NCBI GenBank assembly: GCA_965216875.1
Contig: OZ244207.1
Coordinates: 4,640,001 to 4,704,000 of the forward strand
DNA: 64,000 nt
DNA from: Rubripirellula sp.
GTDB lineage: Bacteria; Planctomycetota; Planctomycetia; Pirellulales; Pirellulaceae
Reading direction: 5' to 3'
How positions within the stretch are numbered: position 1 is the first letter of the stretch; each line of letters starts with the position of its first letter. This document shows positions 16,399 to 39,428 of the stretch, piece by piece. Made by a program: the position numbers and the translations under genes. Under the pieces are notes generated by a model that did no database searches, was not told the origin of the DNA, and was given only the letters and a program-made list of their open reading frames with translations.

Positions 16399-16561
16399 GT
16401 AGTGGACGAGGCTACGAGTCCTTCGTTCTTCGCTTTCGCGACATCAAGGATTAACTCAGGGACTCGTTGCCTCGTCCACTACGACTCTGGGACTCGTAGC
16501 CTCGTCCACTACGACTCAAGGACTCGTTGCCGACTCTGGGACTCGTGGCCTCGTCCACTAC
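16399..16561. repeat. GTAG REP cluster, family D (GTAGTGGACGAGGCTACGAGTCC)
   Basis: One forward copy at 16399, then reverse-complement copies at 16460, 16490, 16520 (partial) and 16539. Confidence 0.85.
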
Positions 16562-29767: not shown

Positions 29768-30172
29768 AATGCGACAAAGGGAAAGGAGGCAAAAAGCTGG
29801 CGGGCAAAAAAAGGGTGCTGATCGGATCTAGGGACAGGAAGTTAAGCGGTCATCCCTCATTTCGATGCCCTCCATTTTTTTAACGATCGACTTACTACGA
29901 ATTCGGGCCATGGCTCCTCTTATTGCCCCCATGTTTCTGTCCAATTCAAACGCGCGTGGTGCTTTGACCTTCTTAGGCTTTGACAGTGGACCAAATGGTT
30001 CAAGTCGTCGACACCACCCCTTGTCCATTCTCGCGAGACAGCAGACATCGGTTTAGACGACATTCGCCCACTTCGTCGGCCATCATCCCCCCCGAAGGTT
30101 GCTTCGCGCTTCGCGGTGCATCACAATTCGATTTACTCATCTGTGACCGATCGATGCTGGGGGACCACCGTT

Positions 30173-31618
30173 GTGGCAAAAGTCAAAGCTTGGAAGTATC
30201 ACGACTCGAGTCAACCATCCTTTCCTGACGACTTCGAGATTGCTCAGAAAGCGGTCCTGCAAGTCACGGACATCAAGACGAACAAAAACAAGTACTACGC
30301 CATCGAACTGCATGCCGCCGGTGGCAGCTTTCGGGTCTTCACCCACTACGGGCGAACCGACGACCTGGATACGAATCCTGAGAGCGGACAAAAGGAGTGT
30401 CGGTACGCCCTTTCGCTCGCGGAAGCTCAGGCGATCTACCAAACGATCTACAACCAAAAAACCTCCAAGAGCAAAGGGTACCAAGAGCTCGCCCTCGCCT
30501 CGAGCAACATCGGCTCACAGCAGGCTCGAGGCACAAGCAGCGGCGACGTTGACGACAAAACACTCGAAAAGCTCGCCGAAAAAGACAAAGCAAAAGGCAA
30601 GAAGGCGAAGAAGCCGAAGGCAAAGAAATCGTCGTTGCCAGCCAGCGTGCAGACCATCGTTCGCTACATGTACGACGAGGCCACCAACGCGCTCACGTCG
30701 ACCGTCCAGGCCAAGATCACGGCCAATGGAATTGAAACGCCGCTTGGCATCCTGACGATCGGCCAGATCGAAAAGGGAGAAGAAATCCTGACCGATGCCT
30801 ACGAGCTGTTCGGCAAGAAGCGAGCTCGTAACCGAGTGGAACGACTCGAGCAGTATTCAAGCGACTTTTACACCGCAATCCCGCATCGGTTTGGCCGCTC
30901 ACGAGCCGCAGCCGAAGCAGCAGTGATCAATTCACTTGCTGACTTTGAACAGAAACAAGAAACACTGCAGCTGATGAAGGACATGTTGCAGGTCAATGGC
31001 GAAGAAGGCAACGTTTTGTTCGACGCTGCCGTTGATAAAGAATACGAAGCGCTCGGCTGCGAGATTCAAACCGTTGACCCCAAGTCGGCGGAATACAAAG
31101 AGCTGAAACAGTACGTTGAAAAGAGCCAGATCAAGACAAAGACCATACGTGTCAAAAACGTCTTTACACTGCATCGCGAAGAAGAACGCACAGAGTTTCG
31201 AGAGAAACTGAAGAACCAACGCCAGCTTTTCCATGGATCACGAATCCAAAACTGGGTGGGGCTTTTGTCACGTGGGATTCTGATGCCCAAAATTGTGGTC
31301 AGCATGGGCGTCAATCGCACCGACGCCGGTTGGCTTGGTAACGGAATCTACTTTGGTGACGCCGCATGCACGAGCAACTTCTATACGACCCCCGGGAAAA
31401 AGAAAACTCGCTTGATGGCAGTTTGCAATGTCGCACTCGGCAAGGTCAAACAATTCCACAAAATCACTTATGGAATGGATGCACCTCCGAAAGGATACGA
31501 CAGCTGTCACGGCGTGCGACAACAAAAGGGCGTGCAGTCGCAATTCGCTGACGACGAGTTCGTCATTTACAACACCAACCAACAACACATGCAGTACTTG
31601 GTCGAATTCACAAGCTAA
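30173..31618 (+). CDS. Poly(ADP-ribose) polymerase: WGR, regulatory and catalytic domains
   Basis: WGR-like KYYAIEL...FTHYGRT...KGY; regulatory TPLGILT...FYTAIPH; catalytic LFHGS, GNGIYFGD, DDEFVIY (H-Y-E); GTG start at 30173 after GGGGA. Confidence 0.93.
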   Translation: MAKVKAWKYHDSSQPSFPDDFEIAQKAVLQVTDIKTNKNKYYAIELHAAGGSFRVFTHYGRTDDLDTNPESGQKECRYALSLAEAQAIYQTIYNQKTSKSKGYQELALASSNIGSQQARGTSSGDVDDKTLEKLAEKDKAKGKKAKKPKAKKSSLPASVQTIVRYMYDEATNALTSTVQAKITANGIETPLGILTIGQIEKGEEILTDAYELFGKKRARNRVERLEQYSSDFYTAIPHRFGRSRAAAEAAVINSLADFEQKQETLQLMKDMLQVNGEEGNVLFDAAVDKEYEALGCEIQTVDPKSAEYKELKQYVEKSQIKTKTIRVKNVFTLHREEERTEFREKLKNQRQLFHGSRIQNWVGLLSRGILMPKIVVSMGVNRTDAGWLGNGIYFGDAACTSNFYTTPGKKKTRLMAVCNVALGKVKQFHKITYGMDAPPKGYDSCHGVRQQKGVQSQFADDEFVIYNTNQQHMQYLVEFTS

Positions 31619-31692: not shown

Positions 31693-32415
31693 ATGCGTGT
31701 TCGCATCGTTTTGGTCGACATCAATAAGAAGATGATCAACGCTTGGCGTTCGACTTTCGAAGAGAATCCCGAAGTCGAAGTCCTCGAGGGCTCGATGCTT
31801 TCGCAGGAAGTCGACGCTTGGGTCTCGCCAACCAATTCGCGTGGTTCGATGGATGGCGGCCTTGATGCGGTCATCAAGAACGAACTGGGTGGCCAGATTG
31901 AGAACAAAGTTCAAGCAGCAATCAAACAACAACACAGCGGCTTGATGCCTGTTGGTCACGCCACCTGCGTTCCCTCAGGTCGCACAAGGCCCAAGTTCTT
32001 GATCTCGACCCCAACGATGGTCACCTCGTCGGAAAACGTGAGCGACACGATGAATGTCGCTTTGGCGTGTGCAGCGGCCTTTCAAGTCGTTCACATGCAG
32101 AATTCAGCGGAACCGGGAAGCATCACTTCGGTCGCGTTGCCCGGCCTCGGCGCCAACACCGGCCAGGTCCCAGTCGAAATCTGTGCTGACTTGATGTGGA
32201 GCGGTTATAGCCTCTTTCGACGCCGCGGGTTTGAGAGCTTCCAGGCCATGCGGGAAGCCCTTGAATTCGAACTCGGTGACCTGAGTCCGGGATCTTTGCC
32301 GACGCCCGGCCCGATCGAGCTTCCAGAAAATGATGCCTTCCAACCACCCAAACCCGAAGCCGCCGCCCCGCCAAGTGAGAAGGTGGCCGAAGTCGATTTC
32401 GACGACTTCGAATAA
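31693..32415 (+). CDS. Macrodomain protein (ADP-ribose binding/hydrolase)
   Basis: DAWVSPTNSRGSMDGGLD and VALPGLGANTG macro loops; GAGGGG RBS. Confidence 0.9.
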   Translation: MRVRIVLVDINKKMINAWRSTFEENPEVEVLEGSMLSQEVDAWVSPTNSRGSMDGGLDAVIKNELGGQIENKVQAAIKQQHSGLMPVGHATCVPSGRTRPKFLISTPTMVTSSENVSDTMNVALACAAAFQVVHMQNSAEPGSITSVALPGLGANTGQVPVEICADLMWSGYSLFRRRGFESFQAMREALEFELGDLSPGSLPTPGPIELPENDAFQPPKPEAAAPPSEKVAEVDFDDFE

Positions 32416-32467: not shown

Positions 32468-34957
32468 ATGCTGTCACCTGTTCGCCTTTACCGACCCAGC
32501 GGCCACGAGCGTGTGGCAATCGTTTCGGTCGAGGCCGCGTATGGTGACGCTGGAAAGTGGCTCGTTCGCATCGCGTTGGGCGTGTCGTCGGATAAGTTGC
32601 ACACGGGCACAACCCTTGGACCCTTTGCTGATTCCGAGCTCGAGGCACGTTTTGCCGAAACCGTAAAGGAACTTCGCGATCAGGGCTTTGGCGAAGGGAC
32701 ACGTGAAGACTGGTCCGTCCTCCTTGGTGATGCCGATGCACGCGTGCGGGCAAGGACAGCGCAACGCATCGGTTGGCGGCAAGACCGCAAGTATGTCGAC
32801 ACCTTGCTCGCACGATTACCTCTCGCTGTCGACGACCTTTGTTCGATCGTTGATGCGTTGGGCGCGATCGGTGATCCGAAAGCGGTCGACGCTGTCAAAG
32901 AAATCGCCCAACGGAAACTTCTCTCACGACGACGAAGCGGTGTCGAGGCACTGCGAAACCTCGGCGACGCAGCCGTGCTCGACCAGGTTCTTTTGGGAAC
33001 CTTCCAAGCTTTATCTCCAACCATCCAATCGGCACTTGATCAATCGATCCCAGATGTGGGCACGATCGCAGATGCGATTCGAAGCGTCGAATCGAAACGA
33101 CTCGCCTTCACTCTCGACCAAGTTTACGAACTCAATCGTCCCGTCGCCAACGAAGCGATTCGGTCCATCATCGTCGACATGAACTTTGATCAACCGTTTG
33201 TCTGGCGGTATATCAAAAGCATCTTCAAGCGTTCAATGCTTCGACACGACCCTGTCATGTTTGGCTGGCTCGCCTACAAGATCGAAGCCAAGGGACGGTT
33301 GACCACCGGGCGTTCCGAAGCGGTCAAGTCGGGTTACGACGGCGTCGAGCGGACGACATTGGTTTTTGGTCGACGAACCCAGCGATACGTTCGGCGTTCT
33401 GCTTGGCGGTACCTGCGAAACCTTGCCCGCTACCGTCCGCACCTCTACACCGAAGCCGCAGCCGAAGCGGTTGTTCCGTACGTGGTGCAAGACGGCCGCC
33501 AACCGCGCGGCTTGTACGGTCAATTCTCGGACTGCTACCTGCTACATCGAGTTCTTTTGAACGGGTCGTCACGATTTAGCTACGACGATCGGCGGATGCG
33601 ATTTCGCTTCCGCAATGCGCTCTCGCATCAAACCCCCGATCAGACTCGCGAAGAAGCGTTCCCACATCTATGGGATCGCTACCCCAAGCCCTACTTGCGA
33701 GTCCTCGGCGCAGCCTCGCTCGAACTCGCGCAGACCTTTGCCCGAGATGGTTTCGCTCGTCACGGCGACCTCCTGACGACCGCTTCCAACGATGAATTGA
33801 TTCGGCTGCTCGAGGGCAACAACGAAGAAGTCCTGGGACTGGTCCTAAATGAAATTGAATCGCGATTTGATCCCAATGCACCGAACTGGGCCTTGATGGA
33901 CCGTTGCGTCGGGGATGAGCGGGAAAGCGTGCTTGTCCGTGCACGATCGTGGATTGAACAGTCCCACTCCGCTTGGACCGCCGATCATCATCGTACCCTC
34001 CGTTACCTTGGTTGCCGCGATCGTCAATTGCGCGAGATCGTGATCGCGAGAACGATCGATTGCCTCTCAAGGGATGAAGCGTCGAGACGTGGTTTCGTTG
34101 ATCGAATCCTGCCGTTGATGCGAGAACCCGAAACGCAAGGACTGGAGGCTGTCGGGCGAGTTGCTCGGGAGTGCTTGACCGCGGAACTAAGTCAGCGGCT
34201 GTCGCAAACCGAGCTGCTTGCGATGATCTTCACCGCTTCGCCGTCGATCCAGGCGGTTGCAGCGCATGTCTTTTGCCTGAACGATTCTTCGTCCGTGACC
34301 CTTGAGCAGATCTTCAGCATCGCGTCACACGACGTTGCTGCGGTACGAAAAGCCGCGCACGATCTGATGGCAAGGCAAACCAATCGGCTTAAGAGTGACC
34401 CTGACACACTCTTCATGATGCTTGAAAGTCGCTGGCCCGATTCACGCTTAATCGCTAAACAGTTCTTGGAGAAACACATCGATTGGTCGGAAGCGAGTTT
34501 TGATCGAGTGATGGGGCTGCTCGATTCAAACTTGGTCGATGTACAGGATTTCGGCCAAGAGATAGTTCAGCAGCAGTGGCAGCAGCTTGATCCAGTGCTG
34601 TTGGTCAATCGACTTTGCGAACACCATGACCAAAACATGCGTCGCTTCGCTTTTGGACTCGCCCAGAACCATCTTCCCGAAGGCGCCGATGCTCTTGAAT
34701 CGATCGAGCACTTCGTTCGCGTCGTGATCATGGAGATCCATCCTGACCAAAAGACACGCGACCAATTGATCGCATTTCTCGTCCAGCGCGGCCTGCAGGA
34801 TGCAGAACAGGCCGCCATTGCGAGTCGCTACCTCGAGATGATCTTGCCCACTCAAGGGCAAAGAGTGTTCGAGAGGGTGCTTGCCGGAATGACAAGGCTC
34901 AAGTTGCGTTGGCCCCAACTTGAATTGCCATTCAATTTGCAGGAGTCGGCATCGTGA
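32468..34957 (+). CDS. Large HEAT/ARM-repeat protein
   Basis: PBS-lyase-like HEAT units (DADARVRARTAQRIG, IVDALGAIGDPKAV, GVEALRNLGD); helical Leu-rich sequence; stop overlaps the next start (GTGA). Confidence 0.8.
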   Translation: MLSPVRLYRPSGHERVAIVSVEAAYGDAGKWLVRIALGVSSDKLHTGTTLGPFADSELEARFAETVKELRDQGFGEGTREDWSVLLGDADARVRARTAQRIGWRQDRKYVDTLLARLPLAVDDLCSIVDALGAIGDPKAVDAVKEIAQRKLLSRRRSGVEALRNLGDAAVLDQVLLGTFQALSPTIQSALDQSIPDVGTIADAIRSVESKRLAFTLDQVYELNRPVANEAIRSIIVDMNFDQPFVWRYIKSIFKRSMLRHDPVMFGWLAYKIEAKGRLTTGRSEAVKSGYDGVERTTLVFGRRTQRYVRRSAWRYLRNLARYRPHLYTEAAAEAVVPYVVQDGRQPRGLYGQFSDCYLLHRVLLNGSSRFSYDDRRMRFRFRNALSHQTPDQTREEAFPHLWDRYPKPYLRVLGAASLELAQTFARDGFARHGDLLTTASNDELIRLLEGNNEEVLGLVLNEIESRFDPNAPNWALMDRCVGDERESVLVRARSWIEQSHSAWTADHHRTLRYLGCRDRQLREIVIARTIDCLSRDEASRRGFVDRILPLMREPETQGLEAVGRVARECLTAELSQRLSQTELLAMIFTASPSIQAVAAHVFCLNDSSSVTLEQIFSIASHDVAAVRKAAHDLMARQTNRLKSDPDTLFMMLESRWPDSRLIAKQFLEKHIDWSEASFDRVMGLLDSNLVDVQDFGQEIVQQQWQQLDPVLLVNRLCEHHDQNMRRFAFGLAQNHLPEGADALESIEHFVRVVIMEIHPDQKTRDQLIAFLVQRGLQDAEQAAIASRYLEMILPTQGQRVFERVLAGMTRLKLRWPQLELPFNLQESAS

Positions 34958-36627
34958 TTTTTGAGGCGAAGTACGGCGGCCGCAGCGCAATCGTCAACGG
35001 CTTGCAACAAGGCGATGTCCGGTTTGCAACCAACCTACTGCGTGAAACGACGTACTTTGAAGGCAACCTGCTAAAACCACTCGCGTTTCGCGAAGCGCTT
35101 GCCGCACTTTATCAAGTCGTCGTCAGCGACTTTAAGTATCGCCCGAAGGACCGGTTCGAATTCCAAGAATGGCTCAAAAAACAGGATGATCAATTCCTGG
35201 CCGGATTGGCTGGTTCAACCGAAGCCACGCGTGAGAAACTGCAAACACTTGAGTCACGCAAAACGGTTCTTGACGATGCGCGCCGCAATCGACTGCGTCC
35301 CTTCTACCGCGCGCGACGAGAGTTTTTCGAGCACATCTATCACAATGAATATGAGTTGATGATGTTGCTCGATCCGGTGATCACAGTGCACCCGGACGAG
35401 CTTTCGTTTGAAGCCTTTTCGAAAGACGAAAGCACCTACGCGAGGCTTTCGACTGGCTACGATCTGTTTGGCAACGTTGGCGACTTTCAATGCGGAACGA
35501 CCAACATTGACTTCAGCTTGCAGCTGCACAATGAACTCCAACGAATGCGTAGCTACCGTCGCACTCACTTCACCGTCAATCCGAGTGGACTCACGGTACT
35601 CGACCAAGACTCAGGACACATCGTCCAGGAAAAGAAGATCGACCTTCCCGACTCGTGGATGAAGGGTTTTCTTCAGGTCCATGCCGTGATGGCGATGAGT
35701 TTGACACATGTGCGAATGAAACCGGTCGACCTCTACAACCTCTGCCGTTTCCTTCGCCGCCACCGGGCAAAGGAATCGCCGCGATCGATCCGCTATGAAC
35801 TCGAACCTGGACGGCGCGGGCGATTGGTCCTCGAACCGTGGGACCATGAAATCGAATTGTCGACCGTTTACGAGGGGAGCAAACCCGAATCGATTCGCAC
35901 CTGGGGACGGGACCGACTGCGGACGCTGGAAAAACTGATCCCCGTTTGCGACCAAGTCGACGTCTACCTGGCCGGCTATGGGATGCCAAGTTTTTACGTG
36001 CTGCGGATGGGGGCAATCGTTTTCACCCTCGGATTGTCGGGCTGGACGGACAACGACTGGACCGGCGGCACAAGCTTTGAACAGCTCACTCGGCGCGTCG
36101 ATGTTGATGGACCACAGTTATTCCAAATCTACGAATCGCTTCGAGAGAAACGATTCGCAAACGAACAGGACTTGGCGGCGAAGACTTCACTTAGCATCGA
36201 GCAATGTCGATCCGGCGCATCCATGTTGTGCCAAGCGGGACGGGCCATGTTCGATTTGGCATCGAACGTTTTTCGACACCGTGACCTACTCCATTCGCCG
36301 TTCGATCTTCAGGCAGCCAACCGCACCGTTCAACGAGCGGTCGACGAAGCCAATCCAAATGCAAAGGCAGCCCAACAGATTTACGAAGTTGGCAATGCAC
36401 GATTGATCGCACGTCGCCCCGTCCAGACAGGATGGAAACTCTCAGGCAGCGTCAAAGGATCAGACCAACAACGTGTTCGTCCTTTGTTGCACGTTGATCA
36501 CGAAGGCAAAATCATTGAAGCAACGTGCACGTGTCGCAACTTCAAAGAGTCAAAGTTAACCAAAGGCCCCTGTGAACACATGCTCGCGTTAAGATTGGTT
36601 CACATGGCCCGCTTGGAAGCAGAATAA
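34954..36627 (+). CDS. SWIM zinc-finger protein
   Basis: C-terminal CTC...GPCEH SWIM motif; 4-bp overlap with the upstream gene. Confidence 0.85.
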   Translation: MIFEAKYGGRSAIVNGLQQGDVRFATNLLRETTYFEGNLLKPLAFREALAALYQVVVSDFKYRPKDRFEFQEWLKKQDDQFLAGLAGSTEATREKLQTLESRKTVLDDARRNRLRPFYRARREFFEHIYHNEYELMMLLDPVITVHPDELSFEAFSKDESTYARLSTGYDLFGNVGDFQCGTTNIDFSLQLHNELQRMRSYRRTHFTVNPSGLTVLDQDSGHIVQEKKIDLPDSWMKGFLQVHAVMAMSLTHVRMKPVDLYNLCRFLRRHRAKESPRSIRYELEPGRRGRLVLEPWDHEIELSTVYEGSKPESIRTWGRDRLRTLEKLIPVCDQVDVYLAGYGMPSFYVLRMGAIVFTLGLSGWTDNDWTGGTSFEQLTRRVDVDGPQLFQIYESLREKRFANEQDLAAKTSLSIEQCRSGASMLCQAGRAMFDLASNVFRHRDLLHSPFDLQAANRTVQRAVDEANPNAKAAQQIYEVGNARLIARRPVQTGWKLSGSVKGSDQQRVRPLLHVDHEGKIIEATCTCRNFKESKLTKGPCEHMLALRLVHMARLEAE

Positions 36628-36636
36628 GAACATGAA

Positions 36637-36897
36637 GATAGAAACGGAAAGGGAAGGGGAGTTTGGTTACGAGGCTTAGCAACCCGTCTGGTGATACGCC
36701 AGACATGGCACCGTGCTCTCCATTGTTCACGTGTCCGGTCGCCACCCACGACAAACGACTGGTCCGGCCGACGCTGGGTAGGAACCACAGGTTCCCGCCG
36801 GCCATCGGACCAGATCGTTTGTCGTTTTAGTTGACCGGCCACGTCCCGAGGCTGTACGTAAACCCGAGCCGACTCCTCTTTCCTTTCCGTTTCTGTC
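36637..36897 (+). ncRNA. Retron msr/msd non-coding RNA
   Basis: 27-bp terminal inverted repeat 36637-36663/36871-36897 (4 G-U); short hairpin 36686-36704; long imperfect hairpin 36729-36844; directly 5' of a retron RT. Confidence 0.85.
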
Positions 36898-36913
36898 GAT
36901 CGCTCGACCAATT

Positions 36914-38308
36914 TTGGATGCAATCGTGGCTGACAGCGAAAAGGCCAAACTCTATCAACGTGTCACTCAGGCTCCTGATTGGTGGGTGCTCGAACGGATG
37001 CAACTGCATGGGTACTGGCCTGAACATGAAGGCCTGCCCCCCGATCCGCCGGACGAGCTTGCCGAGCGACAACAGCTCGAAAAGGAGATCGCGCAGCTTC
37101 GCGAACAAGATTCTGTCAACATTGATCCTGACGAAGCGCTCAAACAAGAGCGTGTCCGGAGGTTGAAGGAAAGTCGCGAACGACGCGAGCAGCGCAAAAA
37201 AGAGCGGGCCCAACAAGCGGCTGCGCGGCGTGAACGGTGGCTGACCACGGCAGAGACCACCATCGTTCATGCGGGAGACGGGCACAGCGCCGGCTTGCAA
37301 CAAACGTTGTCAGACACCGCCCGGCTCGAGCGACTCGGGCTCCCAACATTGCATCGCAGCGAAGAACTTGCGGACGCAATGGGAATCGAATTGGCGACAT
37401 TGCGATGGCTAACGTTTCATCGACGCGGCGCAGCTCTGGTTCACTATCGACGCTACGACATCGACAAAAAGACCGGGGGCGTGCGCAACATTTCGGCACC
37501 GCGTCCGGCAATCGCAAGTGCACAACGCTGGGTTCTTGAAAACGTCTTGAGCCCACTCGATACATCCGACGCTGCTCACGGTTTTGTCAAGCAACGAAAC
37601 ATCGTTTCCAATGCCGCGCCCCATACCGGCCAGAAGATCGTGATCAACATGGATATGGAAAACTTCTTTCCATCAATCACGTTTCGTCGGGTGAAGGGAC
37701 TTTTTTGCCAGCTTGGTTACAGCGAACATCTCGCCGTCGTAATGGCGCTCCTTTGCACCGAGCCACCAAGAGTCGCGGTGGAACACGCCGGAAAAGTCAT
37801 GCACGTTGCAATTGGCGATCGCGTGCTGCCGCAAGGCGCCTGTACGAGCCCCGCGATCACGAACTTGATTTGCCGAAAACTTGACGCTCGTTTGCAGGGA
37901 TTCAGCGAGAAAGTCGGATTCGCCTACACGAGGTATGCCGACGATCTGACATTCTCCGGTAACGACTCGTCCAAAGTGGGCAAAGTCTTGCGGATGTCGC
38001 GACAGGTCCTGAGCGATGAGGGCTTTAAGGAACACCCAACCAAAACGCGCATCATGCGCCGCGGTCGCCGGCAAGAAGTGACGGGGGTCGTCGTCAACGA
38101 AAAGCCTGCAGTAGGACGTCGCGAGTATCGGCGATTGCGAGCGATCTTGCACAACGCCGCCAAACACGGGTTGGAAAGTCAGAACCGATCGAATCATCCC
38201 GCCTTTGCCGAACACCTTCGCGGCCAAGTCGCTTTCGTGCAAATGATTGACCCGGCAAAGGGGGACAAGTTGAAAGCGGACTTGGACAAAGTTCTCGGCG
38301 CACGTTAG
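36914..38308 (+). CDS. Retron-type reverse transcriptase (Mx162-like, long N-terminal extension)
   Basis: NAAPH (region X, NAxxH), FFPSI, LPQGACTSP, YTRYADDLTFS, EVTGVVVN (region Y, VTG); start may be GTG at 36926. Confidence 0.95.
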   Translation: MDAIVADSEKAKLYQRVTQAPDWWVLERMQLHGYWPEHEGLPPDPPDELAERQQLEKEIAQLREQDSVNIDPDEALKQERVRRLKESRERREQRKKERAQQAAARRERWLTTAETTIVHAGDGHSAGLQQTLSDTARLERLGLPTLHRSEELADAMGIELATLRWLTFHRRGAALVHYRRYDIDKKTGGVRNISAPRPAIASAQRWVLENVLSPLDTSDAAHGFVKQRNIVSNAAPHTGQKIVINMDMENFFPSITFRRVKGLFCQLGYSEHLAVVMALLCTEPPRVAVEHAGKVMHVAIGDRVLPQGACTSPAITNLICRKLDARLQGFSEKVGFAYTRYADDLTFSGNDSSKVGKVLRMSRQVLSDEGFKEHPTKTRIMRRGRRQEVTGVVVNEKPAVGRREYRRLRAILHNAAKHGLESQNRSNHPAFAEHLRGQVAFVQMIDPAKGDKLKADLDKVLGAR

Positions 38309-38333
38309 CCAGCCACCACAGTCGAGGTGGTGT

Positions 38334-39428
38334 CTAGTCGAACAGCCCAGGTTGATTTTGAGGCTTTGCACCGTCGCCTTGCTCGTCCTGCGCTGTCGTT
38401 TCGGGCGTCGCCGATTGACCGGTTGGTTCAGTTGGATTGACCGGTAGGCGAGTCTTTGTGGGACGCGACGGCGGCGCTGCCGGCGTCGGCTCGGATGCCC
38501 TCACATCAAGCAAGGCGTCGATGGCGGGATCCAAAAGATCGCGACGGGCAATGCCTTGTAGCCATTGTTCAGGCATTCCGCGCGTTCCCCAATATGCCCC
38601 AGCGATCTGTCCGCAAACGGCGCCGGTCGTGTCAGCATCATCACCGAGATTCACCGCATCCAGCACCGCTTCGCGAAACGTGTCTGCTTTGTGAAACGCC
38701 CACAACGAGGCTTCCAAGCTATGAACGACGTAACCTGACCCTCGAATCTCAGGGGGCTGTCGGACACGAAAACTCCCCTCAGCAATCTCATCAATCGCTG
38801 GATGCAGCGGCTCAAGATCGCGAATCGCTTGCAGCGGTCCCCACGTCGGCGACAGCACTTCATCGCGCGGAACTCCCTTGATCAACCCGCACACGATCAA
38901 TGTCATGTAGCGACAGGCCGATCGGCACTGGTCACTCGCATGCGTGGGAACGCTCGATTGATCCGCATACTGCATCAACACATCAAGATGATCCGGATAG
39001 AGATCAAGAAACCTCATCGGAATTGGCGCCAGCCGCATGATCGAGCCATTACCGCTTGAATAGTCATCGCGACTCGCACAGGACCAAGGGTCGCCTTCGC
39101 GATCGAACCTCGACAACGCGCTGCTGACGGTCATCCCAATGTCGAAACAACGACCGATGACACTGTATTGGCCCTCGCGGCGCCAGGCGATGTAGCGTTT
39201 CAATTGGTCGGACAAGTCCCAACCACACTTGACGATACTGTCGGCAAGGGCGAGCGCCATGCTGGTATCGTCGGTCCACTCGCCTGGATCGAGTCCGTGT
39301 GGACCTCCGGCGCGAAACCCCGTCACAGGTGGAAAAGTTCCGGGCGCTTTGAACTCGACCGCTGCACCGAGCGCATCACCAATCGCCATGCCCAGGAATG
39401 TTCCACGTAACCGACTTTCTATGTACAT
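38334..39428 (-). CDS. ADP-ribosylglycohydrolase (DraG/ARH family)
   Basis: GMAIGDALG, WTDDT, GNGSIMR, GDDADTTGA motifs. Confidence 0.93.
   Translation of the reverse strand: MYIESRLRGTFLGMAIGDALGAAVEFKAPGTFPPVTGFRAGGPHGLDPGEWTDDTSMALALADSIVKCGWDLSDQLKRYIAWRREGQYSVIGRCFDIGMTVSSALSRFDREGDPWSCASRDDYSSGNGSIMRLAPIPMRFLDLYPDHLDVLMQYADQSSVPTHASDQCRSACRYMTLIVCGLIKGVPRDEVLSPTWGPLQAIRDLEPLHPAIDEIAEGSFRVRQPPEIRGSGYVVHSLEASLWAFHKADTFREAVLDAVNLGDDADTTGAVCGQIAGAYWGTRGMPEQWLQGIARRDLLDPAIDALLDVRASEPTPAAPPSRPTKTRLPVNPTEPTGQSATPETTAQDEQGDGAKPQNQPGLFD

Follow-up and report, generated by a model that had tools for sequence, protein, structure and literature searches.

We found that the 261 nt at positions 36637-36897 (+) of the analysed stretch of planctomycete DNA (the window, 64,000 nt) very probably encode the msr-msd non-coding RNA (ncRNA) of a Type XIII retron, which would be reverse-transcribed from G36679 into a branched RNA-DNA molecule. 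As judged from its sequence, the RNA is a new member of the Mx162/Mx65 family, a known kind of molecule. It fills the gap between two co-directional genes, lying 10 nt past the stop codon at 36627 of a SWIM zinc-finger gene and 17 nt before the retron reverse transcriptase (RT) gene at 36914.

Fold of the RNA and its closing stem

The minimum-free-energy fold and the comparisons described below gave the following elements, and the coordinates of every element listed in the preliminary description match the fold:

36637..36663 (+), a1, 5' arm of the closing stem, 27 pairs with a2, covarying arms
36664..36678 (+), 5' side of the extended closing stem (GGTT, CG, GG, TTA), pairs with 36859-36870
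36679 (+), candidate branching (priming) guanosine in TTAGC, from fold and conservation
36686..36704 (+), msr hairpin, 8 pairs and 3-base loop, from fold and covariation
36729..36844 (+), long msd hairpin, 116 nt, predicted template of the msDNA stem-loop, from fold and covariation
36858 (+), predicted first templated base, from the retron mechanism as outlined in the consulted parts of PMC7736814 and PMC6868368
36859..36870 (+), 3' side of the extended closing stem (TAA, CC, CG, AGCC), from the fold
36871..36897 (+), a2, 3' arm of the closing stem, from fold and repeat search

The arms a1 and a2 had been described as pairing without interruption, and in the minimum-free-energy fold they form 27 uninterrupted pairs. 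Four of these pairs are not Watson-Crick (T36639-G36895, G36653-T36881, G36657-T36877 and T36663-G36871), and the fold bears out the earlier observation that each is a G-U pair on the + strand. Read on the - strand, all four would be C-A mismatches, and the repeat would then not be among the long repeats. When G-U pairs and spans of 130-340 nt were allowed, a1/a2 was the longest inverted repeat of the 64-kb window, with 27 pairs compared to 15-18 for the longest repeat in 20 dinucleotide shuffles of the window. The closing stem runs on beyond a1/a2 through GGTT/AGCC, CG/CG, GG/CC and TTA (36676-36678)/TAA (36859-36861), interrupted by single-base bulges only. This extension adds 11 pairs to the 27-pair stem and places the stem end directly before G36679.

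The small hairpin proposed at 36686-36704 was recovered in the same fold as GTCTGGTG-ATA-CGCCAGAC, together with the helices of the long hairpin, namely ACGTG/CACGT, CCGGTCG/TGACCGG, ACGACAAACGA/TCGTTTGTCGT, CTGGTCCGG/TCGGACCAG, GCTGG/CCGGC and the apical GGAACC/GGTTCC. Folded as RNA, 36630-36905 (276 nt) reached -141.9 kcal/mol compared to -92.8 +/- 4.9 kcal/mol for 200 shuffles (z = -10.0), none of which folded as well. A near-identical strain, represented by a contig from an unrelated metagenome run, shows 3 differences in the 401 bases of 36560-36960. Two of them, G36653A and G36871A, each convert an a1/a2 G-U pair to A-U, and the third, C36683T, falls in an unpaired linker. An Rfam scan of 35500-38500 returned zero family matches at E <= 1.

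Conservation of the RNA structure in related loci

Relatives of the RNA were sought upstream of related RT genes. Among 201 genomes of the same order, 51 contain an RT match at E <= 1e-40; a search of genome contigs with the single RT protein gave 2 loci. A script that asked for a stem of at least 7 pairs, a 3-base loop and the core GG.G-NNN-C.CC was applied to the DNA ahead of the RT in 34 loci. It found a counterpart of the msr hairpin in 28 of them, and 2 of the 6 remaining loci have less than 420 nt of upstream DNA. Around the hairpin, most loci carry terminal inverted repeats whose arms are unrelated between loci and complementary within each.

A covariance model, R1, was built from the window RNA and its three nearest relatives (the two units of L003 and the one of L032). 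It has 264 positions and 84 pairs, and its structure is the window fold minus four weak helices. When run over 35 sources (240 kb), R1 matched 19 times at E <= 0.002: the window, the three model-building relatives, and 15 in 14 of the 32 loci outside the model. R1 also matches an RNA in L138, a locus of genome G526. The distant groups L014, L020-L022, L024 and L026-L031 are supported by the hairpin-plus-inverted-repeat script and not by the covariance model. In the alignment of the genome set, 86.6% of cells are paired. Shuffling lowered this to 57.5%, with 0 of 500 shuffles reaching the observed value, and sliding the partners by 1-3 columns lowered it to 36-43%. Changes on both sides occur at 75 of the 84 pairs. 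A plain MAFFT alignment of six RNAs put the arms out of register and was left out of these counts.

An independent set of 80 loci, none of them used in building R1, was obtained by searching metagenome contigs with three aligned RTs. At E <= 0.01, R1 produced 60 matches in 58 of the 80 loci. All 60 are on the strand of the RT, and for 59 the RT alignment begins no more than 700 nt downstream. Too little upstream sequence is present in 9 of the 22 loci without a match; the other 13, L057 and L059 among them, have enough upstream DNA and gave no R1 match. The 57 distinct metagenome rows, whose RTs are 39-57% identical to the window RT, have 88.2% of cells paired, compared to 56.9% after shuffling (0 of 500 as high) and 36-44% when slid. 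Changes on both sides were seen at 80 of the 84 pairs, and the covariation score was 0.52 compared to 0.14 for shuffled and 0.07-0.09 for slid rows. The alignments behind these pair counts were fitted to the R1 structure, which biases them in its favour, yet the slid and shuffled controls stay far off. By helix, the innermost 3-pair helix of the closing stem (helix 5) is 89% paired in the 57 independent relatives, the msr hairpin (helix 6) has 99.8% of its cells paired with both-side changes at 5 of 8 pairs, and the msd helices 7-12 of R1 are 71-93% paired with compensatory changes present.

Collectively, these results answer the suggestion in the preliminary description that folding be combined with covariation across homologous loci: the retron layout is kept there, with compensatory changes. 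The selection at the RNA level that it had read from the wobble pairs is supported by their strand specificity together with the covarying arms in relatives. Its canonical retron layout also stands, with a1/a2 closure, one msr hairpin, one msd hairpin and an RT on the same strand that matches the RT_XIII model. One to three short msr hairpins and one long msd stem-loop characterise retron RNAs in the text of PMC7736814, and the RNA studied here has an 8-pair and a 116-nt hairpin in these roles.

The same observations bear on the view that the element is an inverted repeat at the DNA level, with no RNA involved. Long terminal inverted repeats are typical of miniature mobile elements, recombination sites and cruciforms, and to that extent the arms would suit any of these. 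R1, however, detects the element just once in the entire 8.26-Mb genome, and that copy is its one significant match in the window. All four wobbles are G-U on the + strand only, the internal helices covary, and 59 of the 60 matches keep the same placement and strand with respect to the RT. We therefore regard a DNA-level repeat as extremely improbable. A protein-coding reading of the open reading frames that overlap the RNA (36663-36830 +, 36600-36923 - and 36542-36805 -) was set aside because the arms are wholly different between loci yet complementary.

R1 also revealed tandem pairs of retron RNAs between the SWIM gene and a single RT in four relatives:

L003, 1956-2227 and 2391-2647 (-), tandem RNAs whose arms and stems differ between units
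L006, 3260-3499 and 3627-3855 (-), tandem RNAs
L105, 6307-6550 and 6554-6802, tandem RNAs
L131, 5484-5758 and 5957-6209, tandem RNAs

We know of no natural tandem msr-msd pairs in chromosomal retrons. Other arrangements were seen as well: the RT lies ahead of HEAT-SWIM, not behind it, in L104, L117 and L118, and L094 holds two SWIM-RT sets inside 8 kb. Elsewhere in the window, 16399-16561 contains a 24-pair inverted repeat, with a ~28-nt unit, GGACTCGTNGCCTCGTCCACTACGACTC, present three times in direct and once in inverted orientation.

Reverse transcriptase and Type XIII partner genes

Three genes surround the RNA in the arrangement of a Type XIII retron:

32468..34957 (+), HEAT/ARM-repeat accessory protein (PADLOC HEAT-ARM_XIII, E 3.3e-64)
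34954..36627 (+), SWIM zinc-finger protein of Type XIII retrons (PADLOC SWIM_XIII, Pfam SWIM)
36914..38308 (+), retron RT, 464 aa with a ~180-aa N-terminal extension (Pfam RVT_1, PADLOC RT_XIII)

The candidate start codons of the RT are TTG at 36914 and GTG at 36926. Pfam RVT_1 spans residues 183-392 (E 1.4e-19), and the best PADLOC model is RT_XIII (E 8.9e-167, 553.8 bits). The next model scores 378 bits and the RT_II-A models about half the RT_XIII score. The RT is assigned to Type XIII, clade 10, by this best profile model and not by a tree. Its translation carries NAAPH, VTG and YADD; NAxxH and VTG are described as retron-specific RT motifs, and YADD as the catalytic one, in the consulted parts of PMC7736814 and PMC6868368.

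The SWIM gene lies directly upstream of the RNA. Its product matches SWIM_XIII at E 4.1e-190 over model positions 1-505 of 509, with Pfam SWIM at residues 519-546, so that the SWIM protein by which Type XIII is defined (cluster 114) is present. So is the preceding HEAT/ARM gene, whose stop overlaps the SWIM start. In the majority Type XIII form (cluster 216_1), the HEAT/ARM protein has a WGR-like N-terminus that, according to the text of PMC7736814, is not required of all members. This N-terminus is absent from the HEAT/ARM protein of the window, for which Pfam gives HEAT_2 and no WGR, and which the WGR_XIII model matches only at positions 112-531 of 973. The WGR domain sits instead on an upstream PARP protein. 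Together, the RT_XIII, SWIM_XIII and HEAT-ARM_XIII matches place the locus in Type XIII of the retron classification by Mestre et al. 2020. This type includes the classical msDNA producers Mx162, Mx65, Sa163 and Ne144 and is reported to have an ncRNA structure of its own (PMC7736814, consulted in part); in its general layout, the RNA studied here agrees with the description in that text. In the SPIRE survey, Planctomycetota hold 26 of 143 Type XIII RTs, as stated in the consulted part of PMC13712802.

Several defence RTs have structured RNAs upstream. The RNA could accordingly be the template of a non-retron system, for example of cDNA synthesis of the DRT/UG type that proceeds without a 2'-5' branch, and the RT does have weak NCBIfam matches to Drt2, Drt3a and Drt4. 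These matches, however, reach 21-31 bits against cut-offs of 200-450 (Drt2, 31.2 against 390; Drt3a, 22.5 against 200; Drt4, 21.6 against 450), and group_II_RT_mat is likewise below its cut-off (56.8 bits against 300). Retron models, in contrast, score 216-223 bits and PADLOC RT_XIII 554 bits, and the retron-specific NAxxH and VTG motifs are present. A template of this other kind is thus highly improbable.

Candidate branch guanosine and predicted msDNA

G36679, within TTAGCAAC, is the first base after the inner end of the closing stem. Of the 57 relatives that have a letter in its column, 54 show G, and all 57 have C at the following base, mostly with A after it. The CG that precedes the 3' side of the closing stem is also conserved in relatives. 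In the retrons described in the consulted part of PMC6868368, the priming guanosine lies at or just past the inner end of the msr stem arm, mostly in the context TAGC, with CAGC in Mx162 and Sa163 and GAGC in Mx65. A G near TTAGC had been named as a candidate branch point in the preliminary description. The conserved G at the inner stem end and its TAGC context favour that choice at the sequence level, and G36679 is likely to be the 2'-5' branch point.

The steps by which the RNA would be copied can be outlined from its fold and from the retron literature. The RNA would be transcribed together with the RT gene, or just ahead of it. The a1/a2 arms and the 11 further pairs would close it and expose G36679 at the inner stem end, where the RT presumably recognises the conserved 8-pair msr hairpin beside this base. 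The 2'-OH of G36679 would then prime the RT. Copying would start at about 36858, the base 5' of the TAA that pairs with TTA, proceed leftwards through the 116-nt hairpin, and stop in the interval that separates the msr from the msd hairpin. This would yield RNA joined through a branch to a DNA of ~135-150 nt that forms a long hairpin. When folded as DNA, the strand complementary to 36712-36858 gives a single long hairpin (-44.2 kcal/mol, z = -6.2). Both the stop site and the msDNA length of about 135-150 nt are estimates by analogy with the dimensions of Mx162, for which the consulted part of PMC6868368 gives a 241-nt transcript, a 162-nt DNA and an 8-base overlap. From what is established for retrons in general, this one may have a role in defence.

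Scans of 36000-38600 found 0 sigma-70-like promoter sites and 3 terminator-like sites, the latter no more than in shuffles. The RNA may be released from an operon transcript by cutting, or may have a promoter of another type. The tight fit between two co-directional genes, with no promoter-like site, would also suit a structured intergenic operon RNA, such as a processing site, stabiliser or attenuator between SWIM and RT, that is not reverse-transcribed. We consider this very improbable: every part of the retron layout is present, with a conserved G where the stem ends, a retron-type RT is found beside the element in every case, and the family of that RT has experimentally proven msDNA producers in Mx162 and Mx65 (PMC7736814, consulted in part). 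The conserved G, the family of the RT, the strand specificity of the wobbles and the presence of one copy only contradict each of the three rival readings (operon RNA, non-retron template and DNA repeat), which together are improbable. R1 supplies a working structure and a named branch guanosine, predicted at G36679, for Type XIII retrons of Planctomycetota.

PARP, Macro and ADP-ribosylglycohydrolase genes beside the retron

The retron genes are flanked by three genes of ADP-ribose metabolism:

30116..31618 (+), WGR - PARP_reg - PARP catalytic protein (Pfam)
31693..32415 (+), Macro-domain protein (Pfam Macro, E 1.5e-13)
38334..39428 (-), ADP-ribosylglycohydrolase, convergent with the RT (Pfam ADP_ribosyl_GH, E 3.8e-71)

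The solved chains closest to the PARP protein are those of human PARP4 (E 7e-53) and human PARP2 (E 9e-31), with which its motifs HGS, GIYF and DDEFV align. PARP genes are scarce in this group. As a query against 401 genomes of the order, the PARP protein matches in 2, the window's own genome and G067; when 401 genomes sampled from the phylum were searched with Pfam PF00644, 3 had a match. The own genome has another, distantly related gene with a PARP domain outside the window, at G000:C1:214345-214695 (-) (L141). It matches PF00644 at E 5e-16, is 29% identical to the window PARP, and has no retron genes that we could find within 10 kb.

The order PARP-Macro-HEAT-SWIM-RNA-RT is shared by the window, the metagenome loci L062, L063 and L064, and L138, which belongs to a genome (G526) from another part of the phylum. 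L062, L063 and L064 are all of the close HEAT-SWIM relatives (RT 53-63% identity) with enough upstream DNA; L058, L060, L061 and L065 are cut too short upstream to show PARP-Macro. Close relatives of the PARP (61-66% identity) precede HEAT-SWIM-RNA-RT in this same order in 5 of 6 places, and the Macro gene follows next after the PARP gene in every orthologous locus. In G067, whose family consists of 3 genomes, PARP-Macro stands apart from the retron, between ArgJ / semialdehyde dehydrogenase genes and a SurA-like gene, and the retron is on a separate 3.4-kb contig. An independent arrangement of the same parts is found in L032, from a Pirellulaceae genome bin (RT 44% identity): WGR-HEAT, SWIM, RNA and RT are followed by WGR-PARP, by a 239-aa protein that belongs to no known family and by an ADP-ribosylglycohydrolase-Macro fusion on the other strand. 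In the window, L058 and L062, the gene after the RT is for an ADP-ribosylglycohydrolase, which in L032 takes the form of the Macro fusion; tblastn did not find one after the RT in L060, L064, L065 or L138.

Further away, tblastn found no PARP at 1e-6 in the 71 metagenome loci of greater distance, or at 1e-5 in 20 genome loci of 20 kb. The RTs at L057 5005-6345 and L059 10001-11338 are among the closest metagenome relatives of the window RT (58% identity); these two loci showed no SWIM, HEAT or PARP gene within 5-10 kb and no R1 match, and each of these RTs may stand alone or belong to a system organised in another way. The separate PARP-Macro of G067, the bare L057 and L059 and the distant loci lacking PARP count against a fixed link between PARP and retron.

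According to the consulted part of PMC8120803, the activity of bacterial PARPs depends on DNA, what they do in the cell is unknown, and in other PARPs the WGR domain confers DNA-dependent activation. Our literature searches found no link between retrons and PARP, and 'PARP', 'ADP-ribos' and 'macro' are absent from the main texts of PMC7736814 and PMC13712802. We tentatively put forward, as a possibility to which we give rather low odds, that a branch of Type XIII retrons recruited a DNA-activated PARP as effector. The WGR domain might read the msDNA, or its loss or alteration in phage infection, and the Macro protein and ADP-ribosylglycohydrolase might act as protective erasers; the pairing of msDNA as ligand with WGR, and of the two enzymes with an eraser role, is speculative and drawn by analogy. 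If true, ADP-ribosylation would here be under the guard of a retron, and a bacterial PARP would for the first time have an assigned role. The RNA alone is of modest interest, and the locus gains interest from the PARP-Macro module that recurs beside it: an abundant structured retron DNA beside a DNA-activated PARP would make both functions testable together. Type XIII is the founding retron family, and the literature examined states no function for it.

Comparison with known systems

The retron studied here resembles Mx162, Mx65, Sa163 and Ne144 in its RT clade (RT_XIII) and in the N-terminal extension of the RT (PMC6868368, consulted in part). With the Mx162 group it shares the SWIM and HEAT/ARM partner genes and a predicted priming G in the context NAGC, and with Mx162 itself a long ncRNA (261 nt here, 241 nt in Mx162) in which a long closing stem encloses an msr hairpin and a long msd hairpin. 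It is set apart from that group, without direct alignment to Mx162, by its planctomycete rather than myxobacterial host. The predicted priming context is TAGC, unlike the CAGC of Mx162 and Sa163 and the GAGC of Mx65 given in the consulted part of PMC6868368, and unlike the Mx162 group it has a HEAT/ARM protein without the WGR-like N-terminus and flanking PARP, Macro and ADP-ribosylglycohydrolase genes. Retron-Eco1 (Ec86) has in common with it the a1/a2 closure, the priming G (predicted here) at the stem end in TAGC, the msd hairpin and an RT with NAxxH, VTG and YADD, whereas its RT clade and effectors are different and both its RNA and its closing stem are much shorter.

The PARP protein of the window has the WGR - PARP_reg - PARP architecture of the Herpetosiphon aurantiacus and Clostridioides difficile PARPs, and like theirs its gene is adjoined by one for an ADP-ribose remover; the H, Y and E motif residues are aligned (PMC8120803, consulted in part). 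Unlike those PARPs, in whose review the consulted text has 0 occurrences of 'reverse transcriptase', the window PARP heads a retron cluster.
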